From: an uncultured Candidatus Saccharibacteria bacterium
Lineage (GTDB): Bacteria; Patescibacteriota; Saccharimonadia; Saccharimonadales; Saccharimonadaceae
Direction: 5' to 3'
DNA length: 64,000 nt
Assembly (NCBI GenBank): GCA_946222005.1
Contig: CAMIHP010000002.1
Span: forward strand, 25,322 to 89,321
A program made the position numbers and the translations under genes. The notes beneath the pieces were generated by a model that was not told the DNA's origin, searched no databases, and saw only the letters and a program-made list of their open reading frames with translations. Below, in pieces: positions 3,088 to 51,150 of this stretch (position 1 is its first letter; each line of letters opens with the position of its first letter).

Positions 3088-4071
3088 TTATATAAAATCA
3101 GCAATATCATCGCCGCGCGCCAGTGCGATAGTATCTTCTATATCCAGCTGGTCTAGGTTGTCGTGTGTGCTTGGGCCGGCTGCTTGTGTTTGCAGGTAGC
3201 CATCAACGAACGCATCAATATCCGCTAGGGATGGAGCAAGTGTTAACGTTTCGCGATCAAACATATTGCTTACATCGCCTAGGCGGTCGATGGTAGCATC
3301 ATGGCTGTAGCGGATATCGGTATACGTTTCGGTATCTAGGTGGCGGATGGCGCCACGCGAATCAAGTGCAAAATTCTTAGCCTGGGCATCGCCATGGATA
3401 AAGCCATGGTTGTGGAGCTCCGCCATAGCACGGCCCGCTACCTGGTACATAGCCCGGCGGGTTTCTGCTGGGGTGTTAGGGTTCCACAGGTAGTTATCGA
3501 GCGTGTTGACGTTATGCTCGTAGCGGGTTAGTACGCCAACGCGCTGCGCCCCACGTGGAGTGTCTTTTGCCCGAATAAAGCCAAGTGGTGTGTAGGTTTT
3601 GTGCTCACCAAAGCGCTCGTTCACGGCCTTGGCTGCTAGGAACTCGCGGCTGGCCGTAATAGGGTGCACATATTTAACGGCTACCAGCTCAGTGATGGTA
3701 CCGGCTTCTGGCTGCGCCATGTGCAACTGGCCAAAGGCAACCTCAGCACGACTATGCTGGCGGCCGCGCTCCAGGCCGGGCACGCGGTTGAGGCTATGGC
3801 TGCGAATATGCTGGTCATCAATGGTGGCCTGTATGCCAGAAATTTCTGGTGGCAAAAGCACCAAATCGCCAGTGGTAAGACTGCCAAGTTTGCGTATGAG
3901 CCGCTCGTTACGGAAGCCGTGTTCAGCAGCGGTTTCGCTATTGGGAATGTATTTATTCTTAAGATAGTCAACGGCACCAACCGGCTGAATTGGGTCGCCA
4001 TCAATAATTAAGTTTGGTGCGATTTTTTCACTCATATCGTTATATTTACCATGAATAGAGTTATTAGTCAA
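3088..4071 (-). CDS. Protein-kinase-like fold phosphotransferase (APH/Kdo-kinase-like). Paralogous to the ORF at 17498..18463.
   Basis: Catalytic-loop-like 'HGFIHGDAQAKNFALD' followed by 'IRHLDTE' (the HGDxxxxN ... D motif pair of the APH/ePK-like fold). Confidence 0.55.
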   Translation of the reverse strand: MTNNSIHGKYNDMSEKIAPNLIIDGDPIQPVGAVDYLKNKYIPNSETAAEHGFRNERLIRKLGSLTTGDLVLLPPEISGIQATIDDQHIRSHSLNRVPGLERGRQHSRAEVAFGQLHMAQPEAGTITELVAVKYVHPITASREFLAAKAVNERFGEHKTYTPLGFIRAKDTPRGAQRVGVLTRYEHNVNTLDNYLWNPNTPAETRRAMYQVAGRAMAELHNHGFIHGDAQAKNFALDSRGAIRHLDTETYTDIRYSHDATIDRLGDVSNMFDRETLTLAPSLADIDAFVDGYLQTQAAGPSTHDNLDQLDIEDTIALARGDDIADFI

Positions 4072-4886: not shown

Positions 4887-5459
4887 CTACGCTGCCCGAA
4901 ACTCATACACAAACGTACCTGTTTTGGGTGAGAGGCAGATGATGTCTAGGTCGGGCGAGCCGTGTTTGTCTGGGAGTGTTTGGCCAAGGTGATGAAAGCG
5001 AATGATACACGAGCTATCTGGCGTAGTGGCTGAGCTCAGCAGAGCACGTGCGTGGCCAGACACCTGCTCTGAAGAATCAAGCGGCAATGTGCGCCCAAGC
5101 TGCGAATATGCCATCCACCCTGTGCAGCCAAATTTGCAATCGCGAAACGGCTGGTTAGCGAGCAGACGCTGGCGTGCGGCGTGGTCGGTAATAGTGCCGA
5201 TGACGATGCCGCCTGGCCCATCAATATTGATAAACTCACCGCGGCTTAGGGCAATGTCGAGCGACTGCGTGGCCTCGCTTTTTACTCGCCGCGCGAGTTC
5301 CTTTGTCGCGTTCGTCCAGAGTGGTTCGGGTCGCATTGCGTGCAGGGCAGTGCTTATGCCAATGCCTACCACGATGAGCAGAATTATCACCACAAGCGGC
5401 AGCCATATATGGCGGAGAAGAGCAGAGAGGTTAGTGAGTGTGCTACGCATATATTTCAT
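4887..5459 (-). CDS. Hypothetical membrane-anchored protein (single N-terminal TM, Cys-containing extracytoplasmic domain). Lies immediately downstream of the SipW gene on the same strand.
   Basis: Hydrophobic segment 'IWLPLVVIILLIVVGIGIS' near the N-terminus. Co-directional with the upstream fibre module, with only an 87-bp gap. Confidence 0.4.
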   Translation of the reverse strand: MKYMRSTLTNLSALLRHIWLPLVVIILLIVVGIGISTALHAMRPEPLWTNATKELARRVKSEATQSLDIALSRGEFINIDGPGGIVIGTITDHAARQRLLANQPFRDCKFGCTGWMAYSQLGRTLPLDSSEQVSGHARALLSSATTPDSSCIIRFHHLGQTLPDKHGSPDLDIICLSPKTGTFVYEFRAA

Positions 5460-5545: not shown

Positions 5546-7219
5546 TTATTTTGTGCCAGCAAGGTAGATTTCTTGCACCTGGGCATCATTCAGCGCGGTG
5601 GTGTGGACAGCCCCAAATTGCATCATACCAGTGAAGAATGTGTTTGTGCTGTTGATCGGTGTGCCATCACCATTACGCCACTCGCTAAAGCGTCCACAGC
5701 CAAACTTCCAGTAGCCACGGAAGTTTTGGGCTTGCGTGACGCTTGGGTCGTGAGCAACCAGTGTGCCATCGGCATAGAGCCGCATGCCTTGTGGTGAGAG
5801 TGAGGCGGCAACGTGGTGCCATTTGCCATCGGCGTAGTTCTTGCCGGCTGGTGAGAAGATTGAGCGCGTGGCATTGGGCCACACCGCAAAGGCAATGCGC
5901 CCTTGCTTGTCGAGAAAGAGGACGCGGTCTAAGCTTGGGTCCGCACCATTGTCTGGTGTACTGGCAAAGCCAGCGATGCGCCCATTATTGAGCCCATATT
6001 GATTGGTATTGAACCAGACAGAGAGGGTAAAAGGGTTGGGGTTGTCGATGAGCGTAGGGTAGGCAAGGCAAGTATCTTTGAAGAGGGTACTGCGCACACG
6101 GTCGCGGCGACAGGCATATGATTGTGAACCATGAGCAGCGGCCGTGCGCGTGAGCCAGGTACCCTTATTGTTATTACCAGATAGGTCGCGCTCGGTAGTG
6201 CCAGTATCGAAGAATGTCATGCCGTAGATGAAGAGCGCCTGCGAGGGGGCAGTGAGCTTGGTGGCATCAGTGCAGTTGTAGAGCACGGCGCGCGCAGTAT
6301 TAGCACTGTTGCGGATCGTACCAGAAAATGCCCCGCTCGTTAGATAAAAGTTATGAAAGATAATGAAGCATATCCCTACCAGTGTAATAATTGCTGCGAC
6401 GATGACAGAAGTTATGGGTAATGGTTGCGGTGAGCTATCGGCTGCGACAGGCCGAGATAGCTGGCGAAGGCCATAGAGCATCAGCCCAAAGGGGATAAGA
6501 CAAATGAGCATAATACACAAGACGACCCACGCTGTGTAATGAATCGTTGGCATGAAAAAATACTGTCCGTGGCTATTTTGCACCGAGACGGTAATGGTAG
6601 CATCTTGGCCGGGGTAGAGCACTGTGCCGACTGCATCGATTGGGAACACTCCGGTATTGACGATGTGCATATTCGCGCCTTCATTGGCTGGCAAGACACT
6701 GAGCACACTAAAGTTGATCCACGGATGAAACCACAGCGACACGGCGCAGAGCACCAGCGTCATGCCAATAATCCGATAATACCAGCGCCACGTTGGGCGA
6801 GCTCGGCGGGTGGCTAGATGGATGATAAGCCAGCCGATCACCACCCATGGCATCATCAGCCATACCCAGCCAAGCCATGGGTTGATGAAAATTGCTTTGC
6901 CGATGACGGCACTGTGCTTGATGGGGAGCGGATCGGCCGCGTGGTTGAGGTCGCCCTTGGTGAGGATACGCTGGTTGGTGATAGACTCAATCCGATGAGT
7001 ATACGTCCGGCCGTGGCGCTGGAAGGTGATGATATCGCCGGGGTGGTAGCTGCTAGCTGGCTGGGCAATGACGAGCGAGCCAACTGGTGCGGCGGTAGCC
7101 ATGCTCGGCGTTGTGACAAAAAAGATACGCATGCCGAGCGCCATCATCACGGCAACGAAGCCTCCAAGACAGAGGCTTAGGATAGTGATGATAATTATTC
7201 GTTGCCGCGGCATGCGCAT
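5546..7219 (-). CDS. SipW-type (archaeal/ER-type) signal peptidase I domain fused to a C-terminal LamG/concanavalin-A-like lectin domain.
   Basis: N-terminal TM followed by 'TTPSMATAAPVGSLVIAQP', 'GDIITF', 'HRI' and 'TKGDLNHAADP', which are the S26 SipW-like Ser/His boxes and the GDN..D motif. Several more TM helices follow. The C-terminal ~200 aa carry LamG-like strands 'TLSVWFNTNQ...GRIAGF...VLFLDKQGRIAFAVW...KWHHVAASLSPQGMRLYADGTLV'. Confidence 0.65.
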   Translation of the reverse strand: MRMPRQRIIIITILSLCLGGFVAVMMALGMRIFFVTTPSMATAAPVGSLVIAQPASSYHPGDIITFQRHGRTYTHRIESITNQRILTKGDLNHAADPLPIKHSAVIGKAIFINPWLGWVWLMMPWVVIGWLIIHLATRRARPTWRWYYRIIGMTLVLCAVSLWFHPWINFSVLSVLPANEGANMHIVNTGVFPIDAVGTVLYPGQDATITVSVQNSHGQYFFMPTIHYTAWVVLCIMLICLIPFGLMLYGLRQLSRPVAADSSPQPLPITSVIVAAIITLVGICFIIFHNFYLTSGAFSGTIRNSANTARAVLYNCTDATKLTAPSQALFIYGMTFFDTGTTERDLSGNNNKGTWLTRTAAAHGSQSYACRRDRVRSTLFKDTCLAYPTLIDNPNPFTLSVWFNTNQYGLNNGRIAGFASTPDNGADPSLDRVLFLDKQGRIAFAVWPNATRSIFSPAGKNYADGKWHHVAASLSPQGMRLYADGTLVAHDPSVTQAQNFRGYWKFGCGRFSEWRNGDGTPINSTNTFFTGMMQFGAVHTTALNDAQVQEIYLAGTK

Positions 7220-7237: not shown

Positions 7238-7891
7238 TTACGCGCCAAATGTCCACGTCAGTGGTTGTGAGACCTGCAGACCTTGGTAGGTTGGGCCAGC
7301 GCTGGCGTCGAGCGACACCTCAAAGGTGATTGGTACACTCTCTCCTGCGTTGATGGTTGCTTTGCTGAGCTTGGCGAGCAGGTCAATAGCACCGCCTGCT
7401 TGCAATTGTGCGGCAGTACCCGTAAAGAATGTGCTGCTGCCTGATTTGATGGCTACCTTAACCTTGCTGCAGAGGTCGGTTGCACTACCTGCTAAAGAAG
7501 CACCAGGGACAGGTGATTGGCTACATGTGCCAGGGTTGAGGCTAAAGGATGTTGCGGCCACGCTTCCGGTGTTTTGCAGAGTAATGTTGGTTGTTTGGGC
7601 TGGCCCACCAGCAACGAGTGGTGTGCTCGTGCCACCATACTTGTTGATAGTAGAGCAGGTAGCAGAGTTGGTTGTTGCACCAGCGCCGTCTGTGCTATTG
7701 CAGGTGTAGGTGCCCGATGTTTCCTTCATGGTGAGTGTACCGGTTGAGGCGCTGTTGATGGTGTTTTGGATGCTTGCCGCAAAGCCTGCGAAGGTTGGTG
7801 TAAAGGTGAAGGCGACCAGCAGTGCACCGACGATTCCCGTTGAGATAAGGCCGATCCGCTTCTTGCTCTGGCCAGCTTGAGTTGCAATCAT
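7238..7891 (-). CDS. SipW-cognate-class secreted protein (TasA/camelysin-like or pilin-like fibre subunit candidate), Thr/Gly/Ser-rich.
   Basis: N-terminus 'MIATQAGQSKKRIGLISTGIVGALLVAFTFTPTFAGFAAS' resembles the SipW-cognate signal peptide (charged, hydrophobic, then TFA.F). It lies immediately upstream of, and co-directional with, the SipW gene with a 19-bp gap. Likely ATG at 7891, preceded by a GGGGGA RBS. Confidence 0.55.
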   Translation of the reverse strand: MIATQAGQSKKRIGLISTGIVGALLVAFTFTPTFAGFAASIQNTINSASTGTLTMKETSGTYTCNSTDGAGATTNSATCSTINKYGGTSTPLVAGGPAQTTNITLQNTGSVAATSFSLNPGTCSQSPVPGASLAGSATDLCSKVKVAIKSGSSTFFTGTAAQLQAGGAIDLLAKLSKATINAGESVPITFEVSLDASAGPTYQGLQVSQPLTWTFGA

Positions 7892-8376: not shown

Positions 8377-8949
8377 ATGGCAATCAGTCAGGCGAAACTA
8401 ATTCAGGCAGCGCGGCGAGTCTTTGCCCAGGACGGCTACAAGGCGGCATCGATTGTGGAGATTGCTCAGGTGGCGGGCATTGCGGTGGGTGGTGTGTATT
8501 TGCTCTATCCGTCTAAGCTGGAGCTCTTCCTTGCGGTGTATCGTGCGGAGGACGAAAAGACGAAGAACCGGATTGTTGGACGAATCGATTGGTCGCAGCC
8601 GCGGGCGGCTTTTGCAGCCTATCTACGTGCCACGACGCAAGCCATGCGGCGTAATAAAATCCTCGCCGAGTGGCAGAGTGATGTGCCTGGCGAGCAGGTG
8701 CGTCAAGCTTACCATGATGATGCGAAGCAAGTAGGAGCGGGCAATAGTCTGGCACTGCGTGGTGAGTTCTTTGCCGAGCAGGTGCAGCAGTGGCGGCGCG
8801 ATGGCGTACTACGGCCAGGCGCGACCGACCAGATAATCAGCGAGCTCTTTACGGCAGTGGCAGCGATTGACGCACGAGAAGATATTGCACCAAAGACGAT
8901 GCGGTTTATGGTTGATGCGGTGCTTGAGCAGCTGTTTGTGAGTGAGTAG
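8377..8949 (+). CDS. TetR/AcrR family transcriptional regulator.
   Basis: N-terminal HTH 'LIQAARRVFAQDGYKAASIVEIAQVAGIAVGGVYLLYPSKLELF'. Confidence 0.8.
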   Translation: MAISQAKLIQAARRVFAQDGYKAASIVEIAQVAGIAVGGVYLLYPSKLELFLAVYRAEDEKTKNRIVGRIDWSQPRAAFAAYLRATTQAMRRNKILAEWQSDVPGEQVRQAYHDDAKQVGAGNSLALRGEFFAEQVQQWRRDGVLRPGATDQIISELFTAVAAIDAREDIAPKTMRFMVDAVLEQLFVSE

Positions 8950-9972: not shown

Positions 9973-10683
9973 TTATTGCACCCCACCTGCCTTGAGTAAT
10001 GTCTTTAGCCCGTGCTCGCCGCCACCAAAGCCGCTGGTGGTGTAGTCGTTGACGATCATGTAGGGCAGGCCAGTGACGCCGAGCTTGAGAGCGCGGCTGG
10101 TGTTTGTGGCGATGTCATCTTTGTGCTTCTCATTTGTCACACAGTCGCGGAAGATCTCGACGTTGAGCCCAATCGCTTCGGCTGATGTTTCGAAATAGCT
10201 AACCGGGAGGAGCGGAATTTCTTTGGGCACGGCAACGCCTTTGACGCCAATGCCTTTGTCAAAGTAGTCAGCTTTGATGCGGGGCACAATATGGTGCGTG
10301 TATTCCCAATATTTATGCTGGTCGGCTGCGCAAAATGCTGCCTCGGCGCCACGTTCAGTGTTAGGCACGATATCTTTGAGAACGGCAACAATCCGGTGTT
10401 CGTAGCGTAGCTTGCCAGACTTAATGTGCTGCTGGAAGTCTGCGGTGTTTGTAGCGGCCTCAACCTGCGCACAAAATGAGCAGAAGTAGTCGGTGTAGTC
10501 GACGAAGACATTGGGTGCAGTGTGGCTGCCCTGCGACATCGCGCTCTGCCAGGGCTCACCTTTGCCAATGTGCTTGTTGGGTGGGCGGTTGATGAGATTG
10601 TAGGCGAAGAGGCTGATGATTGTGATGACGACAATCCCAAGCATGATATGGATCAAGCTAACCCCTGTTTGTTTTGACTGCAT
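9973..10683 (-). CDS. DsbA-like thioredoxin-fold thiol:disulfide oxidoreductase, membrane-anchored.
   Basis: N-terminal TM. CxxC active site 'DYFCSFCAQ' in a DsbA-like context. Confidence 0.75.
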   Translation of the reverse strand: MQSKQTGVSLIHIMLGIVVITIISLFAYNLINRPPNKHIGKGEPWQSAMSQGSHTAPNVFVDYTDYFCSFCAQVEAATNTADFQQHIKSGKLRYEHRIVAVLKDIVPNTERGAEAAFCAADQHKYWEYTHHIVPRIKADYFDKGIGVKGVAVPKEIPLLPVSYFETSAEAIGLNVEIFRDCVTNEKHKDDIATNTSRALKLGVTGLPYMIVNDYTTSGFGGGEHGLKTLLKAGGVQ

Positions 10684-11281
10684 GATGCTCCTCCTGCTGA
10701 GCTAATGTTATGTAGATGGCGGCAATCTGGCCCGATCGATAGAGCGAAAAGAGGCTGAGCCCAAGGGCGATGATAAGCACAATGGTGCTGGCAACCGTCG
10801 CGGCCGAAGCGGCGGCTGCTCCCGAGAAAAACACTGCCACGATGGGGAGAATGAGTGATGTACCACAGGGTACGCAGCCCAGGCCAATTGCCGCCGCGAC
10901 GGAGGCAATACCGCTGAGGCCGAGCTGCTGGGTGGTTTGCTGGTTGCGCTTGTTGTGCCGGGCAGTGAAGATAATAAGCGTGAGCGATATTCCTTGTAGC
11001 ATTGAGACAAGCACAAGCAGTGCACCCGTCAGCGATGTCGCGGCCTGCCGAGCGATCTCTATAAACATCGTCCCAATGACGCTAAGTTTATCGATAAGCG
11101 GCAAGCGAGATACCAGCAGCGCGCCATAGAAACCACCGTTGGTTAAGAGAAAAATCAGCCAGGCAAAGCCAAGTGCGCCAACCAGAGCGCCAACCGCATA
11201 GCGTGGTTGGCGCAGCACCTGACTAATGCCGCTCAGGGCGGTAAGCGTGGCGTGATGTAGCGAAGAAAGGTGATGTTTCAT
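10658..11281 (-). CDS. Polytopic membrane protein with an intramembrane CxxC ('GLGCVPCGTS'). A possible redox partner of the adjacent DsbA-like protein.
   Basis: Five to six hydrophobic helices. A single CVPC pair. The 3' end overlaps the DsbA-like gene's start by 26 bp (translational coupling). Not a canonical VKOR or DsbB: it has only two Cys and no TYA motif. Confidence 0.45.
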   Translation of the reverse strand: MKHHLSSLHHATLTALSGISQVLRQPRYAVGALVGALGFAWLIFLLTNGGFYGALLVSRLPLIDKLSVIGTMFIEIARQAATSLTGALLVLVSMLQGISLTLIIFTARHNKRNQQTTQQLGLSGIASVAAAIGLGCVPCGTSLILPIVAVFFSGAAAASAATVASTIVLIIALGLSLFSLYRSGQIAAIYITLAQQEEHHAVKTNRG

Positions 11282-11338: not shown

Positions 11339-11971
11339 TTACTCTATGACGCCGTAGCCAAGCAGGCCAGTATAGTTGCGCTGTTGGTTCGCAAAGACAC
11401 GTATCTTGTTATTCTCGTTGCCGCCAACAGTGGTGAGTATGCCATCATCATTGCGCAGGATGATGTGCGTGTGGTCGCCAAAGACGGGCGAAGCGCGGTA
11501 GATTGCTACGTCGCCAGGGCGGGGCTGGTAGCCACTATCGGCTGGCTTGAAGCGGCCTGCTGACTCGTAATACTCACGCAGCGTGAAGGTGCCTGGGATG
11601 CGCCAGCTACCAGTGTGTGGGTTCTTGAGCGGCGCACCGGCTTGCTGCATCGTCCAGCTGACGAAGTCGGCACACCATGCCTCGTGCGCTCCTTGGCTAT
11701 ATTTCGTACCAGCGGGCTGAGCGGCAAACTCTGCTTGGGTAAGCTGGATAACCTTGCGGCGAGTAGGGCTGAGGGCTTGCGTGTTGATCTCAGGAAAATG
11801 GGCTAGTCCTGGCGAACGATCGAGCGTAGCCACATGCGACGTGCCCTGGAGCTTGTAGAGGATCTTACGCCAGCCAATCGCTGTGCCAACAATGCCGCCA
11901 ATAACGAGAAGGAGGGCAAGGCAGATGGTGATAATGGTTGCTCGGTGGCTGAGAGGGAATAATCGTTTCAT
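11339..11971 (-). CDS. CHAP-domain peptidoglycan amidase/endopeptidase, N-terminally membrane-anchored.
   Basis: CHAP Cys/His regions 'AHEAWCADFVSW' and 'GDHTHIIL'. Likely start at the internal Met 'MKRLFPL' rather than the longest ORF (12157). Confidence 0.65.
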   Translation of the reverse strand: MKRLFPLSHRATIITICLALLLVIGGIVGTAIGWRKILYKLQGTSHVATLDRSPGLAHFPEINTQALSPTRRKVIQLTQAEFAAQPAGTKYSQGAHEAWCADFVSWTMQQAGAPLKNPHTGSWRIPGTFTLREYYESAGRFKPADSGYQPRPGDVAIYRASPVFGDHTHIILRNDDGILTTVGGNENNKIRVFANQQRNYTGLLGYGVIE

Positions 11972-12050
11972 ACGTATAGTATACACCGCGTGGTGATGAG
12001 ATGCTTGTTGGGTAGTTGCCGTTCGGGCTGTGAGTGAGGATTTATTTTGT

Positions 12051-12290
12051 TTAATAGCCGCACACCATAGCAGCGAAATTGCCGAGTGCCTTGCCGACAT
12101 CTCTCCACCGACGACACCGAAACAGGTCGTGTGCGGTAATGAGCAGTGCTGCACCAATGATAATAAGCAACGCAGCTAAGGTGTACCCTGCGAGAGATGA
12201 CTGACCGATGAATAGCTGCAGCGCATAATAGCTAGCCGTGAATGCGAAGCCAAAGATGATGAGACTGAGGAGTTTGAAGAGGTAATGCAT
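12051..12290 (-). CDS. Small two-TM membrane protein (hypothetical).
   Basis: 79-aa ORF with two hydrophobic helices. Weak evidence. Confidence 0.3.
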   Translation of the reverse strand: MHYLFKLLSLIIFGFAFTASYYALQLFIGQSSLAGYTLAALLIIIGAALLITAHDLFRCRRWRDVGKALGNFAAMVCGY

Positions 12291-43875: not shown

Positions 43876-44098
43876 GTATAGTATTTTACTACATACGAGA
43901 AGAGATAAAAAACTGAACATGCCTTGAGATCACTTGTTATGTGCCGCTGGAGCCCTATGATTTACGGTGTATCATAATGTGAAAGGGAACTGTGAGTGTG
44001 CAAATGTCTTGTTTATACATGGATGTATGACATCGCTTGTACTACTTATGCTACGGTTGATGGTAGTGCTAGGTCTGAAGATACACTACAATAATAAT

Positions 44099-44638
44099 AT
44101 GAACCAAGAATGGAACGTTATAAGTCAAAAGAAGTTGGTCGACTCGTCGTGGTACAAGCTCAATATTGAAACCGTCAGGCTCCCGTCAGGCAAAGTCCTC
44201 GATGATTATTACGTGCGAGAGGGTATGAACGCCGTTTTGATCGTTCCACGCACTCATGAAGGCAAATTTTTACTGGTGCGTCAGTACAAACACGGAGCGC
44301 AGCAAAGTGTTATAGAATTTCCTGCGGGTAAGATTGATGCGGGTGAATCTGCTTTAATTGCTGCAAAAAGGGAATTATATGAAGAGACTGGAGGCACCTC
44401 CAGTCTTTTTGTAGAGGGACCTACATTTTTTGAGGACCCTACAAATAGCCGTGTCAAGATAGCGATCGTCTTTGCTGATAATGTCACTATAAAGCATAGG
44501 CAACATCTTGACGATAATGAGGATATTGAAGTAATACAGCTAACAACTGACGAGCTACGAACTATGCTTATGAACAATGAGCTATCTGTGGCAGCATCCG
44601 TAGCAGCAGGTTGGATAGCACTAGAGAGGAGATGGTAA
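44099..44638 (+). CDS. NUDIX hydrolase (ADP-ribose pyrophosphatase-like), low GC.
   Basis: Nudix box 'GKIDAGESALIAAKRELYEETG'. The longest ORF starts at 43967, but its first 44 aa look non-coding. Confidence 0.65.
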   Translation: MNQEWNVISQKKLVDSSWYKLNIETVRLPSGKVLDDYYVREGMNAVLIVPRTHEGKFLLVRQYKHGAQQSVIEFPAGKIDAGESALIAAKRELYEETGGTSSLFVEGPTFFEDPTNSRVKIAIVFADNVTIKHRQHLDDNEDIEVIQLTTDELRTMLMNNELSVAASVAAGWIALERRW

Positions 44639-44848
44639 CATGAATACATACGAGTCTGGGACAATAAACCAGGTATTGAAAAAAGCAAACTGATGATTGA
44701 GGTGATTGATAAGGAATGAGGAGTAGGACGGAGACTGTTTATCGATATGGTATCTAGACAGATATAACTCATAAAAGGGAAAATCAGAAGTTCTATATTC
44801 GTGCTAGAATAGTCAGAGAGTAGGAAGTAGGGGGTGAGGGTAGAAAAT

Positions 44849-45610
44849 ATGCCCAAGAAGAAACTAAATAATAATACCAAACTAAGCTTCCGTACCATTC
44901 TTCTCCGTAGTATTCTCTATGTAATTGGTGTACCAACAGTCATCATGCTTCTCCTTGTTGGCGGATTCTATCTCAAATTATGTGCTGAAGCTAGCCAAGC
45001 TCAAGCAGCAATGAAAACATATCTACATAGTAAATATGGTGAAGAATTTATCGTCGAACGACCAGAAAAGAATGGAAGCGGGCTCGGTGTAGAAGGGTGG
45101 TTTGAAGCAACAGCCTACCCGAAGAATCACACAGACATCCGCTTCATTGTTATGCTGTCATCCTCAGGGAAGCATGATGGCTATGCTGGTGCTGTATGGT
45201 CAAAAGAAGAGACTGATCGACTCAAACCTATTATTCAGCGTATCTTTAGTAAAGATGTAGTGTATAGTGTAACCATCCAATCGTCTATGACGCTACAAAC
45301 GAAAGATATACAAGTTGACGGTGTAATACCACGTTTTACACAAGCGGCGGCACAATATAAGCAGCAAATTCCATATAATATCACTATTCAAAAAACACAC
45401 CAAACACGAGAATATCAGGAAAAAATGCGCATCGTCGATAATCTTAAAGAGCTTGCAAAGGATCTGCCAGATACCGTTGACACTACTATTCGCTACCAAG
45501 CACAAACATCTGGAGGTAAGAAGTTTGATTTAGATATAACAATCATGGCATTAAAATCCACACCACAAGAAACATTAGTCACAATGTTTCAAGAAAAGGA
45601 GAGTCTATAA
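44849..45610 (+). CDS. Paralog 1 of a four-member family of type-II membrane-anchored proteins (conserved N-terminal TM anchor, divergent extracytoplasmic C-domain). Candidate immunity or variable surface protein.
   Basis: 'MPKKKLNNNTKLSFRTILLRSILYVIGVPTVIMLLLVGGFYLK' is shared almost identically with paralog 3, and clearly with paralogs 2 and 4. ATG preceded by a G-rich RBS. Confidence 0.6.
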   Translation: MPKKKLNNNTKLSFRTILLRSILYVIGVPTVIMLLLVGGFYLKLCAEASQAQAAMKTYLHSKYGEEFIVERPEKNGSGLGVEGWFEATAYPKNHTDIRFIVMLSSSGKHDGYAGAVWSKEETDRLKPIIQRIFSKDVVYSVTIQSSMTLQTKDIQVDGVIPRFTQAAAQYKQQIPYNITIQKTHQTREYQEKMRIVDNLKELAKDLPDTVDTTIRYQAQTSGGKKFDLDITIMALKSTPQETLVTMFQEKESL

Positions 45611-45612
45611 AT

Positions 45613-45684
45613 ATGAGCATAACAATAGAGCAATATCTTGCACTAAGTGCACTTGCCTATAAAATACAACCTTTAAAAGAATAA
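45613..45684 (+). pseudogene. Degenerate 5' fragment of the lipase/RTX gene (24 codons) trailing paralog 1.
   Basis: Translation 'MSITIEQYLALSALAYKIQPLKE*' against the lipase N-terminus 'MVKDEQFLTLSSLAYEPFSD'. The core 'EQYLALSALAY' matches 'EQFLTLSSLAY'. Confidence 0.55.
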
Positions 45685-45710
45685 CTAGAAAGTTCCATAA
45701 TTACACTACT

Positions 45711-45734
45711 AATAGTCGCGTAGCTAAAATAGGG
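45711..45734 (+). promoter_or_regulatory. Conserved upstream element of the paralog array (copy before paralog 2), containing a -10-like TAAAAT.
   Basis: 'aatagtcgcgtagctaaaataggg' here matches 'acaatagtcgcgtagccaaaaaatagggg' at 46751-46779, with a weaker 'agaatagtc' at about 44807. Confidence 0.4.
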
Positions 45735-45752
45735 ATCTTGAGAGCAGAAAAT

Positions 45753-46505
45753 ATGTCCAATAAAAAACCAAACGATAACAGCAAACTAAGCTTCCGCACC
45801 ATCCTCTTCCGTAGTATTCTCTACGTGATTATCATTCCGACAGTTATCATGTTGGTAATATTTGGTATATTCTACACAAAATCTACTATTGATGATCATA
45901 TTGCTCAATCACATATGCGGTCATACCTCAAACGTAAGTATGGCCAAGAATTTATAGTAGAGAATTATCGAATCGAGGGGGCTGGCCTTGGAGTAGATGG
46001 TGTTGCCAAGGCTGAGGCGTATGCTAAAAGTGACCACACGATTCGATTTATGGTGAAGGGGTTTCCGGGGGACAGTCCATACAGTAATAACTATTGGGAT
46101 GGATACCCCGATATGACATGGGCAAAACACCTCAAAAAGGATATTGATCCTATGATAAAAAACGTATTTGGTGCCGACACATCGCTCGCATCAATAGAAG
46201 TTTACAGTATACCTGCAGTGAACCAAAGGATAGGAAAAGAAATACCATTGTATCGTGATGCCTTCCAGCGATTTGGTAAAGATATACATGTCGCTGTACG
46301 TATAAAGAGTAGGGTTGTCCATAATGATGTAGCCGCACAGATATACCAGATAATCGTCAAGCTGCGAGAGTTCGGTGTGTCGCTATCTATTAATTATGAG
46401 AACCCCATGGTATATGTTGCATTAGTCGAAGAAACAAGTATACGCGGTATACATTCACCACAGGATGTAAGGAAATATATAGAAATGAAGGGGGAAAAGC
46501 TATGA
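45753..46505 (+). CDS. Paralog 2 of the membrane-anchored family.
   Basis: 'MSNKKPNDNSKLSFRTILFRSILYVIIIPTVIMLVIFGIFYTK'. The C-domain is divergent but alignable in patches with the other three paralogs. Confidence 0.6.
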   Translation: MSNKKPNDNSKLSFRTILFRSILYVIIIPTVIMLVIFGIFYTKSTIDDHIAQSHMRSYLKRKYGQEFIVENYRIEGAGLGVDGVAKAEAYAKSDHTIRFMVKGFPGDSPYSNNYWDGYPDMTWAKHLKKDIDPMIKNVFGADTSLASIEVYSIPAVNQRIGKEIPLYRDAFQRFGKDIHVAVRIKSRVVHNDVAAQIYQIIVKLREFGVSLSINYENPMVYVALVEETSIRGIHSPQDVRKYIEMKGEKL

Positions 46506-46543
46506 AAATAGAACAATGCTTGGTGTTAAGCTCATTATCTTAA
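46502..46543 (+). pseudogene. Second degenerate 5' fragment of the lipase gene (14 codons) trailing paralog 2.
   Basis: 'MKIEQCLVLSSLS*' against the lipase 'MVKDEQFLTLSSLAY'. Confidence 0.5.
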
Positions 46544-46750
46544 TAGTACATCCCTAAGTAGTTTTGCCTCTAGCAGCGAGAAGCCACCATTGAGGCGCTC
46601 ATAAAACAGGGAAAAATTGACAATTATCGCCATAGCGATGGATCTATTTCTCTCGAATGCAAACCCCTCTCCTCTCTCATATCTTGACACCTCATCAACG
46701 CTACGACTTTCAGAGTAAGAAGAATAACTCAATAGTTCTGCATTTGTGCT

Positions 46751-46779
46751 ACAATAGTCGCGTAGCCAAAAAATAGGGG
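46751..46779 (+). promoter_or_regulatory. Conserved upstream element of the paralog array (copy before paralog 3).
   Basis: A duplicate of the 45711-45734 element, including the TAGCCAAAAAAT -10-like box. Confidence 0.4.
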
Positions 46780-46797
46780 TTGTTGGGAGAAGAGAAT

Positions 46798-47538
46798 ATG
46801 TCCAAGAAGGAACTAAATAATAACACCAAACTAAGCTTCCGTACCATTCTTCTCCGTGGTATTCTCTATGTCATCATTATTCCAACGGCTGTTATGATTC
46901 TCCTTATTGGTGGATTCTATCTCAAGGCCGATATTGAGGCGAATCAAGCTCAAGCAACAATGAAAACTTATTTACAAAACAAATATAATGAGGAATTCAT
47001 CGTTGAGAAACCAGAGCGGAAGAGCAGTGGCCTCGGCGTAGAGGGAGTACTAGCTGCCAATGCTTACCCTATACGGGATCCTCATATACGATTTTCTGTA
47101 AACACCTCATCGAATGGCAATCAAGATAACTATCCAGGTGTAATATGGTCCCGCTCTCAGAATGATAAGTTAATAAAGGATCATATCATAAATAACTCAT
47201 GGGCGCAGACCGACATCACTGTCAGTCTTGCAGACAATACAGCACAGTCGCTGAGCGGTACACCTAAAACATACGAAGAAGCGATAGCGTCTTATGGAAA
47301 AGATATTCACTACATAATAAGTGTTAATCGTAATACAAATCAATTGGCTGTCGATAACCGGGATCGGTACTATCTCATAAGCCTTATTAGATATATCAAT
47401 CAGCAAAAAGTTGGCTACCGTATTATACATTACAGCATACATGATACGAAGATGGACGCAGACATAGTGTGCAATATACAGGTAGAAGGTACGCGTCTAT
47501 TAGATGAAAAACAAGCCAATGAATGCTTTAGAAAATAA
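46798..47538 (+). CDS. Paralog 3 of the membrane-anchored family.
   Basis: The first roughly 130 nt are near-identical to paralog 1 at the DNA level. The C-terminal domain is divergent. Confidence 0.6.
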   Translation: MSKKELNNNTKLSFRTILLRGILYVIIIPTAVMILLIGGFYLKADIEANQAQATMKTYLQNKYNEEFIVEKPERKSSGLGVEGVLAANAYPIRDPHIRFSVNTSSNGNQDNYPGVIWSRSQNDKLIKDHIINNSWAQTDITVSLADNTAQSLSGTPKTYEEAIASYGKDIHYIISVNRNTNQLAVDNRDRYYLISLIRYINQQKVGYRIIHYSIHDTKMDADIVCNIQVEGTRLLDEKQANECFRK

Positions 47539-47556
47539 GGGGTGGGGACAGAAAAC

Positions 47557-48318
47557 ATGCACGAGAAAGAACCAGACGAGAATAATAGGCTAAGCTTTCG
47601 CACCATCCTCTTTCGTGGTATCCTCCGCGTTATCATTATTCCGACATGCGTCATACTTCTATTAACTGGTGCATTAATCGGTATATTTCATATTAAGTAT
47701 CTTATAGAGGCTCATCAAGCTCAGGCTGAAATGCGCGCCTACCTAGAGAAAAAATATCACCAGCACTTCATTATCAAGAACTATCGAATTGAAGGAGGAG
47801 GATTCGCAAGAAGAGGCGGCAAAGTTGCAGATGCACATAGAGAGGGTAGTTCTTATACCTTTCGTGTTTTAGAGAAAGATCACCGGCTCTATCGTGATAA
47901 CTACCTCTCAGCACTTTACAATGAGCAGGAAGAAAAAGATCTTACCAAGATGGTTAAAAAATTGTCTATACCTGCAGTAAAATATATGCCAGATATTACA
48001 ATTGCTCCTGATGTAGCTGATGGGATACAGGGTACGCCAGCTTTTGCTGAGATGTTGCAAAAGTATGGAGACCATATTATATATGAAGTATCTATTGTTG
48101 TAGTAGGGGATCAGGTAAAAGAAGAAGATGTCCAAAACGTAAGAAAACTTATGGAGTATGCCCAATCAAAAAACCCGAGAAGTTATGCTGTGAGATATGT
48201 TGTAAATAGCAGAACTGAAGATGCACGATATATTTGTCAGGAGTATGGAGGTATAAGCGAGAAAACGGCGCAAGAAACTTCTAAGGATTGCTTTAAAAAG
48301 AGTAAGGGAAGGATATAG
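47557..48318 (+). CDS. Paralog 4 of the membrane-anchored family. Directly followed by the lipase/RTX gene.
   Basis: 'MHEKEPDENNRLSFRTILFRGILRVIIIPTCVILLLTG'. Stop at 48318 and the lipase ATG at 48321. Confidence 0.6.
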   Translation: MHEKEPDENNRLSFRTILFRGILRVIIIPTCVILLLTGALIGIFHIKYLIEAHQAQAEMRAYLEKKYHQHFIIKNYRIEGGGFARRGGKVADAHREGSSYTFRVLEKDHRLYRDNYLSALYNEQEEKDLTKMVKKLSIPAVKYMPDITIAPDVADGIQGTPAFAEMLQKYGDHIIYEVSIVVVGDQVKEEDVQNVRKLMEYAQSKNPRSYAVRYVVNSRTEDARYICQEYGGISEKTAQETSKDCFKKSKGRI

Positions 48319-48320
48319 TA

Positions 48321-50909
48321 ATGGTAAAAGACGAACAGTTTTTAACTTTGAGCTCATTGGCATATGAGCCGTTTTCTGATAATGATATCAACAAATCTTT
48401 AAAAGAAATTATTAAGAAAGTACCTAGAAACAACCGTCTTGAACTTAAACCTCTCTCCTCCCTCGCATCCTGGCACCTCATTAACGCCACAACCACTTCA
48501 TCTGGTATGTCGGCTATTGCTGTGCAAGATCCAGCCACCAAGGACATTGTCTTTGCCTATCGCGGAACGGATATTGATAAGAATATCTGGGAGGCGATGA
48601 AAGATATTGAGTCGGATATTGCGATTGCATCGAGTGGAAATGTTTTTGTGCAGGATGGGCTGAACCAATTCCACGATGCTTACACCTTCTATACCGAGAC
48701 GATCAAGAAAGTTGGTGGCGGTGCTCATGTAGGCACCAAGAGCTTCACTGGCCATTCACTCGGTGGTGGACTAGCGCAGTATATGGCGTATAAAACTGGT
48801 GGTGCATATAAGACGGTCACCTTCGACGCGGTAGGGATTGGCCAAGTGCTGAAGAATGTCAACCCGCGGGACTATGATACCTCAGTAACGGACTACACCA
48901 ATGAGCACGATATCATTGGTATGTATGGTGTGCAGCTGGGCCGCACAGTGTACATTAAGGATATGAACAGTGATGAGCTGCGTAAGAAGGACCGTGACTA
49001 TGTGACAATACTGCAGTATGCGCAGGGTGCCATTGCTGTGGCGGCACGCAATGGCGAGCATGCCTCAGCAATGGGGTGGATGGCAGCTGCAAGCATAGCA
49101 TCGCTCGGGTATGCAGTGAATCGCACTAGCCAAGAGCTAGCTTTCGATGCACATCGTCCAAGTAGTTTATTAACTGATGATGGTACGCTAGCAGCCACTG
49201 TACCGCAGGGAGACTCCATCACGAATACATTGGCTGGCGCACTTCGTACAACACTGGAAGTATATACCGGTATTGCCAATGGTGTTCATTTCATCGTTGT
49301 TGAGATTCCAAGTGCTACAGCTGAAGAGCTTGTGCGAATAACGCTCTCTGTCGCTGAAAGTGGTAAGAAGATCATAGTCGATGTAGCACAGGTGATTCGC
49401 GATCAGGTGAATATCCTTACCTCTAGTGTATATGAAACAAGCCGGATTATGGGTGAGCAAGCCGATGCCTTTGCTCGTGTGCTGATGACACAACTTGCTG
49501 GGGCTACGCAATGGACAACTTCGCTCCGCCTCGACATTGCCGTGCTGAGTGCACTGAGTGGTGCGGCCAGAATAACGCGCGATACACTTGCTGCTATAGT
49601 AGAGACACCTGATGCGATGACACGTTGGCTGCAGATGGTCTTTGGTGCAAGTGCACATGTCGTTGGTACAGCAGCAGACGATTCTATTGATGGTTATGAT
49701 CATATCCCAGACTATGGCGTGACGAAGCGTGCGGTCTATGTAGAGGGCCGAGAAGGGAATGATTACGTAACAGGAACGAATTCTGATGATACATTGATGG
49801 GTGATGCAGGGAATGACACTATCATGGGCAAAGGTGGTAATGATATGATTTTTGGCGGTGATGGTGACGATTCTCTATATGGTGATGGTGGTAGTGATAC
49901 AATTTTTGGCGGTGCTGGCGATGACAACCTTAATGGTTCAGAAGGTGATTCTAATAAGCTCTATGGTGGCGCAGGTGATGATGGAATAAATGGTTCCGGG
50001 TTGATTGTTGGCGGCGCAGGTGATGACCGGATCGACTCTCAATTTGGGAACGATACATATATCTATAACCGCGGTGATGGTAATGACACGATTAGCGACT
50101 TTGGCGGCATTGACACTGTACGGTTTGGTGCGGGTATCGTGCCAAGCGGTGTAACGGCACGCTATGAGAGCCGCCCGTATGGCGCGCCAGGCAATGATTA
50201 TGATCTTGTCTTAGATATAAAAGGCTCTGGTAGTATTCGCATCAAAGACTATTATGGTTCGAGTGACTGGGCAGGACGGAACCGTCCCGTACCGGGTCAT
50301 CGTGTCGAGCGCTTTGTTTTTGCAGATGGCACCGTGTGGGATGAGCAGGCAATCCGCACCATGACGCATAACTTACAAGGAACAGCTGACGATGATTCTA
50401 TTGACGCCTTTGATGATGATGGTATCACGGTACATAGTGGAGCTGGTAACGACACGGTGCGTGGCGCGAGGCAAGACGCAAATGTGCTCTATGGGGACGA
50501 CGGTGATGACAGCCTCATTGGTGGTGAGAAAAATGATATGCTGACTGGTGGGCAGGGTAATGATGTGTTGTATGGTGCAGGTGGCAACGATATCTATACC
50601 TTCAAGCGAGGGGATGGTGTTGACACGATAAGTGATGATGACGGCGTTGACACACTGCAGTTTGGCGAAGGCATTAATCCGCGTGATGTGACTGTTCGAC
50701 GTATCCATCTTTCATCATATGAAAGTCTCGAGCTTGCTATCACGGGTACAGGTGATAAAATCATTATCCAAGGATATTTTGGCTCGTACTCATACGACGG
50801 GCTGCATGAGAGCACAAGCCAGCAGATCGAAAAAGTGGTTTTTGCTGATGGTACGGTATGGACACCGGAGATAATCGCGCAAATGCTTGTAGAGCACACG
50901 AGTGAATAG
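48321..50909 (+). CDS. Large secreted-effector-like protein. N-terminal lipase class 3 / Mbeg1-like alpha/beta-hydrolase domain, then RTX nonapeptide Ca2+-binding repeats and two haemolysin-type Ca-binding-related (HCBP_related-like) domains.
   Basis: 'VFAYRGTDIDKNIWEAMKDI' and the nucleophile elbow 'FTGHSLGGGLAQYMA'. Repeated 'GNDTIMGKGGNDMIFGGDGDDSLYGDGGSDTIFGGAGDDNLNG' repeats. Two copies of '...RGDG(N/V)DTISD..G(I/V)DT(V/L)(R/Q)FG.GI.P..VT.R.......VFADGTVW'. No N-terminal signal peptide. Confidence 0.8.
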   Translation: MVKDEQFLTLSSLAYEPFSDNDINKSLKEIIKKVPRNNRLELKPLSSLASWHLINATTTSSGMSAIAVQDPATKDIVFAYRGTDIDKNIWEAMKDIESDIAIASSGNVFVQDGLNQFHDAYTFYTETIKKVGGGAHVGTKSFTGHSLGGGLAQYMAYKTGGAYKTVTFDAVGIGQVLKNVNPRDYDTSVTDYTNEHDIIGMYGVQLGRTVYIKDMNSDELRKKDRDYVTILQYAQGAIAVAARNGEHASAMGWMAAASIASLGYAVNRTSQELAFDAHRPSSLLTDDGTLAATVPQGDSITNTLAGALRTTLEVYTGIANGVHFIVVEIPSATAEELVRITLSVAESGKKIIVDVAQVIRDQVNILTSSVYETSRIMGEQADAFARVLMTQLAGATQWTTSLRLDIAVLSALSGAARITRDTLAAIVETPDAMTRWLQMVFGASAHVVGTAADDSIDGYDHIPDYGVTKRAVYVEGREGNDYVTGTNSDDTLMGDAGNDTIMGKGGNDMIFGGDGDDSLYGDGGSDTIFGGAGDDNLNGSEGDSNKLYGGAGDDGINGSGLIVGGAGDDRIDSQFGNDTYIYNRGDGNDTISDFGGIDTVRFGAGIVPSGVTARYESRPYGAPGNDYDLVLDIKGSGSIRIKDYYGSSDWAGRNRPVPGHRVERFVFADGTVWDEQAIRTMTHNLQGTADDDSIDAFDDDGITVHSGAGNDTVRGARQDANVLYGDDGDDSLIGGEKNDMLTGGQGNDVLYGAGGNDIYTFKRGDGVDTISDDDGVDTLQFGEGINPRDVTVRRIHLSSYESLELAITGTGDKIIIQGYFGSYSYDGLHESTSQQIEKVVFADGTVWTPEIIAQMLVEHTSE

Positions 50910-51150
50910 CGTATAACCTCTGTCTTGGCTCCATCTCATCTGTTGTATTAGCTTTATTGTCTTTATATTGGTAGGCTAGATGGTTTGGGCTACTTTCTCA
51001 ATATTGGTGCTTAGGCAGAATACTAGCTTTCATAACTTCCTAGAGGAAGAATAAGACAGCGAGAAATAATAAATGGGCTGATATGAGCACGTCGCCTCTG
51101 CAGGAGTCTCTTTAAGCTAGCTTTCATCTCTCTCCTGCACAATACCACAC

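Follow-up and report, generated by a model that had tools for sequence, protein, structure and literature searches.

Background

Signal peptidases are normally free-standing enzymes. Here we describe a gene that encodes such an enzyme in one polypeptide with what is probably a substrate of its own. The gene lies in a stretch of 64,000 nucleotides from an uncultured Candidatus Saccharibacteria bacterium (contig CAMIHP010000002.1; this whole stretch is called the window below), next to a gene for a candidate fibre subunit. Saccharibacteria have very small genomes and live attached to Actinomycetota.

The closest described bacterial counterpart is the tapA-sipW-tasA system of Bacillus subtilis. 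TasA is cleaved at T-W-A/A-F-N-D, where the slash marks the cleavage site; the aromatic residue at P2' makes it a poor substrate of P-type peptidases and a client of SipW, and is a mark of SipW-dedicated substrates (PMC10269814). The N-terminal segment freed by this cleavage is the donor strand of TasA. The N-terminus of the accessory subunit TapA mimics a donor strand, and TapA nucleates or anchors the fibre (PMC9674648).

A second counterpart is the haloarchaeal tafi system (TafA/TafE, TafC, TafD, TafG, TafF). The minor subunit TafC, present at about one copy per 100 TafA, combines an N-terminal donor strand with a laminin-G-like domain (PMC11821415). It is modelled as an activator of assembly located at the fibre tip, and TafD is the dedicated signal peptidase I of the system (PMC11821415, PMC12337348). 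For an accessory subunit that combines a lectin fold with a donor strand, TafC (PMC11821415) and TapA (PMC9674648) thus offer precedents.

The locus in the window resembles both systems and differs from both. As in TasA, positions P3, P1 and P2' of the cleavage site predicted for the window fibre subunit are occupied by T, A and F, respectively, and TasA is the best structural match of this subunit. However, the window has two genes, not three, as the candidate accessory subunit is fused to the peptidase. SipW of Bacillus has two transmembrane (TM) segments, whereas the window peptidase has four and an additional beta domain, and the candidate accessory subunit has the LamG lectin fold. The window proteins have no sequence-level match to TasA, TapA or the TIGR04088 model, and the hosts are Saccharibacteria and Actinomycetota. 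In the tafi system, in contrast, TafC and TafD are separate proteins, the hosts are archaea, and export is by the twin-arginine translocation pathway. The window module also lacks the separate pilin-like domain that TafC has between the strand and the LamG domain. The fusion protein may be regarded as a functional analogue of TafC, not as a member of the TafC family.

Results

The best explanation of the two genes is a TasA-like donor-strand fibre cassette whose peptidase has become joined to a lectin-fold accessory subunit in its preprotein form and cuts it after G296. We consider this explanation probable, with substantial room left for its competitors. What the analysis itself shows are the identities of the domains, the predicted topology, the common motif, the conserved gene order, the existence of split loci and independent fusions, and the TasA-like fold of the neighbour.

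Signal peptidase domain and topology of the fusion protein

The original prediction described an open reading frame (ORF) encoding a SipW-type signal peptidase followed by several additional TM helices and an extracytoplasmic LamG-like domain. Its coordinates are correct, and every motif that it quoted is present in the ORF (Table 1). The Ser box TPSMAT is at residues 37-42 and contains S39, H75 is within YTHRIE, and D90 and D96 are within TKGDLNHAADP at residues 87-97.

In hidden Markov model (HMM) searches, the N-terminal part (residues 9-119) matches the NCBIfam model TIGR02228 of archaeal and endoplasmic reticulum (ER)-type signal peptidase I with 51.9 bits and E 7.6e-14, a marginal pass given the cutoff of 51.85. 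The homologues P0289 (61.2 bits) and P0034 (88.7 bits) clear this cutoff comfortably. With a family profile built from 19 members, human SEC11A and SEC11C are recovered at about 1e-4, and the Ser (TPSM), His (THR) and TKGD.N..D boxes line up. Across the 19 homologues, the most distant of which have 32% identity, residues H75, R76, G89, D90, N92 and D96 are invariant. S39 occurs wherever the aligned sequence covers this position, the sole exception being truncated at the N-terminus. The catalytic set is Ser-His(-Asp), as opposed to the Ser-Lys dyad of bacterial P-type enzymes. As predicted originally, this part can be assigned to ER/archaeal-type signal peptidase I (S26B), and it is predicted to remove signal peptides proteolytically. 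The catalytic core with Ser, His and GD.N..D boxes is the same as in SEC11A/C and archaeal signal peptidase I (MEROPS S26B). The latter, however, have no extra TM bundle, beta domain or fused substrate, and SEC11 acts in a multi-subunit complex. The model of Bacillus SipW, NF046067, yields E 1.3e-7 and 31.3 bits against an equivalog cutoff of 190. The fusion peptidase is thus of the same broad class as Bacillus SipW without being its orthologue.

The AlphaFold2 (AF2) model of the fusion has a mean confidence score (pLDDT) of 73 and a global score (pTM) of 0.45. It contains a beta-rich catalytic domain (residues 31-113), four further helices past TM1, in agreement with the original prediction, a disordered stretch at residues 292-326 (pLDDT below 50), and then a confident beta-sandwich up to residue 556. 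The cytoplasmic turn between TM2 and TM3, TRRARPTWR, has four Arg residues. As basic residues occur at the N-terminus and in the loops between TM2 and TM3 and between TM4 and TM5, the catalytic, small beta and LamG domains are predicted to be outside the membrane. The small beta domain (residues 164-229) is matched by no Pfam model. It contains the motif HIVNTG.FP, conserved in two alignments of homologues (A1 and A4), and is a part of the 4-TM peptidase core; it is also found in unfused relatives.

LamG module

The C-terminal module belongs to the LamG/ConA-like lectin-glucanase superfamily by both domain match and fold. Pfam Laminin_G_3 (PF13385) covers residues 392-549 with E 8e-17 and 62.2 bits (gathering threshold 27.6). 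This confirms the domain suggested earlier from the strings TLSVWFN, GRIAGF, RIAFAVW, KWHHVAASLS and LYADGTLV, all of which are present. The sandwich is modelled with pLDDT 85-94 across residues 380-520. Foldseek matches it to ConA-like lectin and carbohydrate-binding domains with probability 1.0, the top matches being AbnA domain 4 (2e-9), botulinum Hc-N and the trans-sialidase lectin domain, and the profile matches in PDB include LamG and pentraxin domains. The motif and domain matches in the fusion protein are far beyond chance. The NCBIfam TafC model (NF052521) matches the LamG part only, with E 0.0026 and 16.9 bits against a cutoff of 410. A search of the protein index with the module alone (residues 256-557) returned one fragment and no list of free-standing homologues.

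Internal signal peptide

The fusions contain an internal segment with the full n-, h- and c-region layout of a signal peptide, situated at TM5. Among 54 distinct fusions, P3 is T or S in 53, P1 is A or G in 53, P1' is A, G or S in 53, and P2' is F, Y or W in 50. Downstream of the site, position +6 is I, V or M in all 54, position +8 is N in 53, and position +11 is N in 44. The residues I at +6 and N at +8 and +11 are common to the fusions and the fibre subunits, and in the window the fusion and the subunit also agree in F at +2. The consensus of the fibre subunits is a basic n-region and an h-region followed by T-F-[AS]/[AG]-[FIL]-x-A-[ST]-I-x-N-[ST]-x-N-T-A-x-T-G-T-L. In the window fusion, residues 293-309 read L-T-S-G/A-F-S-G-T-I-R-N-S-A-N-T-A. 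An Arg-rich n-region precedes the helix in most lineages, and by a strict regular expression in 29 of 36 long cluster representatives. The HMM of the subunit N-terminus matches the internal position in all 83 fusions scanned, with scores up to 22.1 bits; the best score among 4,906 other ORFs is 8.7.

With a threshold as loose as E<=10, neither the window subunit nor the internal segment is matched by the TIGR04088, TIGR04089 and TasA models, and we assign neither to these curated classes. TIGR04088 has no match in the actinobacterial homologues either. The window motif represents a divergent class having P3 T/S, P1 A/G and P2' F in common with TasA. The cytoplasmic linker between TM4 and TM5 varies in other fusions from about 14 to more than 100 residues and is of low complexity, as would be expected of a fusion scar.

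The original prediction suggested that the lectin-like domain could position the protease on a glycan or wall substrate, or could itself bind the fibre. The idea of a targeting domain of the enzyme does not fit well, as the module has its own signal peptide, the subunit motif and separate secreted homologues; the second suggestion was near the mark. Given the complete internal signal peptide, the subunit-type motif and these homologues, the LamG part is best read as a substrate or accessory fibre subunit fused in cis, with a predicted cleavage site at the junction.

Split loci and an independent fusion

Many relatives of the peptidase are not fused. The first alignment of unfused peptidases for the locus scan (37 sequences) was too diverse and was narrowed to 12 sequences. 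Three gene orders were found. The order pilin subunit, LamG protein, 4-TM peptidase occurs in loci L081, L093-L095, L097, L099, L101, L102 and L104. The order pilin subunit, peptidase, LamG protein is found in L088, L089 and L091. In L086, two pilin subunits are followed by the peptidase and a DUF1080 (PF06439) protein with a pilin-type N-terminus. In every split locus the lectin-type protein opens with an Arg-rich n-region, an h-region and the locus-specific pilin motif. Thus in L091 the pilin subunit has TLSGFAASITNSSNT and the LamG protein TLSGFSARVTNSSNK, in L081 the subunit has TLGGFSAG and the LamG protein ALGGFSGT, and in L101 and L104 the subunit and the lectin protein have a one-residue insertion in common. 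Judging by these pairs, the motif co-varies between the subunit and the lectin protein within each locus. In L084, a free 333-aa paralogue of the module (IPSTQA/AFTAKVTNSTNTAGTRSFFTC) is encoded beside a fusion gene with the identical internal sequence. By these gene arrangements, the LamG module of the split loci is a predicted preprotein.

In L091 and L086 the stop codon of the peptidase gene overlaps the start codon of the lectin gene by 4 nt (ATGA and GTGA, respectively), and a single indel would yield exactly the window architecture. As the unfused peptidases end in the cytoplasm after TM4, an appended signal peptide would be inserted in the correct orientation. The unfused loci of Actinomycetota agree with the window in the three components, the motif and the peptidase subfamily, some of them with this overlap at the future joint. 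They differ in that the polypeptides are separate and that many of the LamG proteins are larger, at 460-690 aa, and contain an additional domain or a further LamG.

A different fusion was found in protein P0034 (L085, 5001-6500). It consists of a 2-TM Bacillus-like SipW, a Lys/Arg-rich cytoplasmic linker, a TM segment, the site TTATHA/FFSDLGQSTQNTFSAGQF and a lamin-tail domain (LTD). The upstream gene (L085, 4360-4977) encodes a subunit of the Peptidase_M73/TasA family with the site TAGTFA/MFSDSASSTQNTFASGDL. TIGR04088 scores 17 bits on the internal segment of P0034, against a cutoff of 19, and 24.1 bits on its neighbour. This protein shares with the window fusion the peptidase, the cytoplasmic linker, the internal SipW-type signal peptide, a passenger domain and a fibre-subunit neighbour with the same motif. 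However, the peptidase is of another subfamily, the passenger is a lamin-tail domain, the motif is the canonical FFSD...NTF, and the fusion is evidently an independent event. Thus a SipW-type peptidase has been fused to a client preprotein at least twice, with LamG and LTD passengers. Genes of Cohesin and Big_13 proteins were observed upstream in L085.

Neighbouring fibre subunit

The fusion gene is probably co-transcribed with the gene of the fibre subunit, as the gap between them is only 18 nt. The predicted fold of the subunit is a beta-sandwich of the TasA/AbpA-like class, with TasA as the best structural match, and this bears out the tie to a TasA/pilin system proposed originally. The n-region (KKR), the h-region and the c-region of its signal peptide are retained across homologues. 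The monomer model is of low confidence in its N-terminal region. By analogy with TasA, polymerisation by N-terminal donor-strand exchange may be proposed. A sequence-profile search of PDB with the subunit family yielded nothing relevant and no TasA.

In Actinomycetota the family comprises 272 database clusters at E<=1e-3, and all named ones are called "hypothetical". No Pfam domain is on record for any full-length member among these clusters.

The fibre subunit contains four invariant cysteines, and so does the LamG module (Cys 316, 370, 384 and 508). A gene of a DsbA/thioredoxin-like exported protein (PF13462, PF01323; 9973..10683, minus strand), overlapping an ORF of a 207-aa polytopic membrane protein (10658..11281, minus strand), lies about 3 kb from the cassette. 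Given the two sets of cysteines, this nearby disulfide-forming system may be relevant.

Distribution and origin of the fusion

Relatives were found in 241 of 185,579 species-representative genomes, one genome per species. The best 80 of the 241 are all fusions. Their sources are Saccharibacteria, among them Nanosynbacter and Nanogingivalis, and Actinomycetota (Propionibacteriaceae and Microbacterium, including isolate genomes). The protein index contains 28 full-length homologues, mostly from Candidatus Saccharibacteria and two from Sinomonas, and the labels of these homologues go no further than "signal peptidase I" or "LamG-like jellyroll fold domain-containing protein". Metagenome-assembled genomes of Saccharibacteria from many independent assemblies (L001-L031), at least one of them from an oral sample (L003, label ORAL_M-P), are 92-98% identical to the window.

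When residues 1-262 were searched exhaustively, 547 clusters passed E<=1e-10. Among the 150 best cluster representatives (50% identity), about 36 are fusions of 500-820 aa, with LamG in 9 of the 10 scanned. Most of the others are peptidases without a fusion partner, 260-340 aa in length, which stop just past TM4 and align up to approximately residue 250. The fusion thus forms a sub-clade within a large family of 4-TM SipW-like peptidases that has no name. Identity of the fusions between lineages is 32-41%. In a quick neighbour-joining tree without support values (loci L001-L080), all Saccharibacteria fusions form one clade nested among sequences of Actinomycetota. This suggests that Saccharibacteria may have acquired the fusion from the host phylum of these epibionts.

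Several loci of Propionibacteriaceae/Propionibacteriales (L041, L045, L056 and L070) contain more than one copy of the components. Two tandem paralogous peptidase-LamG fusions were observed in each of L041, L045 and L056. In L070 the second fusion match shares 670 nt with the first and is possibly a spurious ORF in high-GC DNA. Two or three paralogous fibre-subunit genes are present in L041, L045 and L070, and none was found in the examined flank of L056. In protein P0170, a single peptidase carries two LamG modules. The tandem fusions, the subunit paralogues and P0170 point to diversification of lectin heads.

The original prediction knew of no such fusion. The architecture as such is already present in public databases, in Saccharibacteria and Actinomycetota, as the survey of homologues demonstrated. 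On the other hand, a search of the literature on SipW in Saccharibacteria, TasA-like systems in Actinobacteria and peptidase-substrate fusions yielded no description of this architecture, and no paper was found on the fusion, on the fibre-subunit family or on any SipW system of Saccharibacteria. The arrangement of peptidase and substrate in one protein does not seem to have been described.

Other features of the window

The features of the cassette are listed in Table 1.

Table 1. Features of the fibre cassette in the window (all on the minus strand; a slash marks a predicted cleavage site)
Feature	Residues	Position (nt)	Strand	Remarks
Major fibre subunit gene, TasA/AbpA-like, 217 aa		7238..7891	-	18 nt upstream of the fusion gene
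Fibre subunit signal peptide	1-35	7787..7891	-	Predicted cleavage TFA/GFAASIQNTINSAST
Fusion gene, 557 aa		5546..7219	-	4-TM SipW-type signal peptidase, internal signal peptide, LamG module
TM1, N-in membrane anchor of the peptidase	5-27	7139..7207	-	AF2 helix, preceded by basic N-terminus MRMPRQR
Extracytoplasmic catalytic domain	28-115	6875..7138	-	TIGR02228 match, SEC11A/C alignment, conserved residues
Catalytic residues	S39; H75; D90; D96	7103-7105; 6995-6997; 6950-6952; 6932-6934	-	
TM2-TM3 hairpin	116-163	6731..6874	-	AF2 helices 116-139 and 142-163
Small extracytoplasmic beta domain	164-229	6533..6730	-	AF2 strands 170-211
TM4	230-254	6458..6532	-	AF2 helix
Cytoplasmic linker SRPVAADSSPQPLP, fusion joint, n-region equivalent	255-268	6416..6457	-	pLDDT <50 at 256-265
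TM5, h- and c-region of the internal signal peptide	269-296	6332..6415	-	AF2 helix 269-293; ends T-S-G, predicted cleavage after G296
Pilin-type N-terminal motif AFSGTIRNSANTAR, putative donor strand	297-310	6290..6331	-	Aligned to fibre subunit GFAASIQNTINSAS
LamG/ConA-like lectin-fold module	311-557	5549..6289	-	Pfam match 392-549 (nt 5573-6046)

A scan for promoters and terminators around the operon gave results no better than in shuffled sequences (4 sites against 4.1 expected, and 5 against 3.5). The downstream ORF 4887..5459 (190 aa, N-terminal TM segment) was considered as a part of the system and rejected, as it is conserved in close relatives only (29 loci) and has no domain match. 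On the other side, ORF 8377..8949 (plus strand, 190 aa) is divergent from the cassette across an intergenic region of 485 bp. It is retained beside the cassette in close relatives of the window only (33 loci); by the impression of its sequence it is TetR-like, and it could be a local regulator.

ORF 3088..4071 (minus strand, 327 aa) has weak Kdo/WaaP and protein-kinase-like matches (PF06293, 3.9e-5) and is near the cassette in 9 loci only. ORF 11339..12157 (minus strand) encodes a protein that has a CHAP (cell-wall amidase/peptidase) domain and, at its N-terminus, a TM helix.

A low-GC island was observed at 44000-51000 (GC content 0.40, compared to approximately 0.53). It contains four tandem paralogues of about 255 aa on the plus strand (44834..45610, 45738..46505, 46780..47538, 47542..48318), 31-50% identical, with an N-terminal TM helix and no Pfam match. 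They are followed by ORF 48321..50909 (plus strand) encoding an 862-aa protein with C-terminal RTX/HCBP calcium-binding repeats. An effector accompanied by a row of immunity-like paralogues would have a similar layout. The scan of the window for tRNA genes found none. The GC skew is positive in every 2-kb bin (1-64000), and thus the window is probably on a single replichore.

Discussion

The fusion gene may have arisen by joining of two adjacent genes, one encoding a 4-TM SipW-like Ser-His-Asp peptidase with a cytoplasmic C-terminus and the other a lectin-fold accessory preprotein. The latter would have consisted of a signal peptide (now TM5), the T-S-G/A-F site, a pilin-type N-terminal strand and the LamG domain. 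TM5 would insert in-to-out as a signal peptide, and the LamG module would end up outside. The peptidase domain would then cut after G296, either in cis or in trans by a neighbouring molecule. The freed strand AFSGTIRNSANT would complement the first major subunit, in the same way as proposed for TapA/TasA and for TafC with TafE/TafA. As the module has no pilin-type acceptor domain, it could only be situated at a fibre end. There it would act as a cap, being both a nucleator and either a glycan-binding tip or a cell-wall anchor; it may be a distal tip adhesin similar to TafC, or a cell-proximal nucleator or anchor similar to TapA. The fusion would secure a 1:1 supply of the nucleator at the site of processing, and would spare a gene. 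In this scheme, the cleavage, the strand donation, the lectin activity and the role in adhesion are what we infer.

Several observations weigh against this scheme. The window subunit is matched by none of Peptidase_M73 (PF12389), TasA (NF046066) and TIGR04088 among the Pfam and NCBIfam models, and its similarity to TasA is on the level of the predicted fold only. The pTM of 0.45 makes the packing of domains in the AF2 model of the fusion unreliable. That the LamG domain is active as a lectin is an assumption based on its modelled fold. The motif is most degenerate in the clade of the window itself; the HMM score of the window fusion is 3.3 bits, non-significant alone, and its n-region is weak, with two Arg residues only. 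Thus for this protein the argument relies on the unambiguous alignment with clearer homologues. Finally, a pattern of small residues after a TM helix could outlast the fusion for a while without being cut.

The main competitor is that the fusion is permanent, TM5 being an uncleaved fifth anchor. The LamG module would then remain tethered. It could be a membrane-proximal anchor and nucleator of the fibre similar to TapA or TafF, with the strand still used, or a lectin that keeps the enzyme at a wall glycan or holds substrates. We consider this unlikely, if worth serious attention. The architecture is stable across lineages at 32-41% identity, which suggests that the linkage is of value; however, the linkage would be valuable with cleavage as well, owing to the 1:1 stoichiometry and co-localisation. 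For TapA, a role in anchoring TasA at the cell has been proposed (PMC9674648), and TafF is a membrane-anchored terminator in tafi (PMC11821415). On the other hand, a strand starting 3-4 residues from the membrane surface would press the first subunit onto the bilayer. The weak n-region and motif score in the window clade speak for an uncleaved anchor. However, P3 and P1 (53 of 54 fusions each) and the aromatic P2' (50 of 54) are retained although the linker is otherwise free to vary, and free-standing homologues use the identical segment as their N-terminal signal peptide.

Another possibility, which we consider very improbable, is that the tethered segment is a pseudo-substrate that fills the active site and auto-inhibits the peptidase until a signal arrives, for instance binding of a glycan by LamG. 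The sequence is indeed substrate-like and tethered in cis, and the low AF2 confidence in this segment suggests that it is probably flexible. However, nothing sets it apart from a true site, as there is neither a proline at P1' nor a bulky P1, and in split loci the module exists as a separate secreted protein.

The chance that a frameshift in assembly or gene calling has joined two genes is practically negligible: split versions with 4-nt overlaps and frameshifted fusions (for example in L040 and L084) do occur, but the ORF is uninterrupted in more than 80 independent assemblies of many studies, including the isolates Microbacterium testaceum, M. luticocti DSM 19459 and Sinomonas spp., and fusions are as frequent among the cluster representatives as given above.

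Returning to the cleaved accessory subunit, one may go further and imagine a self-priming fibre machine. Each peptidase would carry its first substrate, and one cis-cleavage would seed one lectin-tipped fibre at the place where the major subunits are processed. The two-gene cassette would have been acquired from actinobacterial hosts, and the fibre would bind host cell-wall glycans in epibiotic attachment. We offer this extended scenario as a speculation and regard it as doubtful.

It is unusual for a peptidase to be joined covalently, through an internal signal peptide, to one of its own preprotein substrates. This architecture would represent a fibre system of the TapA-SipW-TasA type compressed to two genes, which fits the small genomes of Saccharibacteria. 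The other phylum carrying the cassette is Actinomycetota, that is, the phylum to which Saccharibacteria attach. The analysis also brings out a large family of actinobacterial fibre subunits for which there has been no annotation. In Saccharibacteria of the human mouth and gut, it points to an unstudied surface fibre that would be of non-type-IV nature and bear a lectin.

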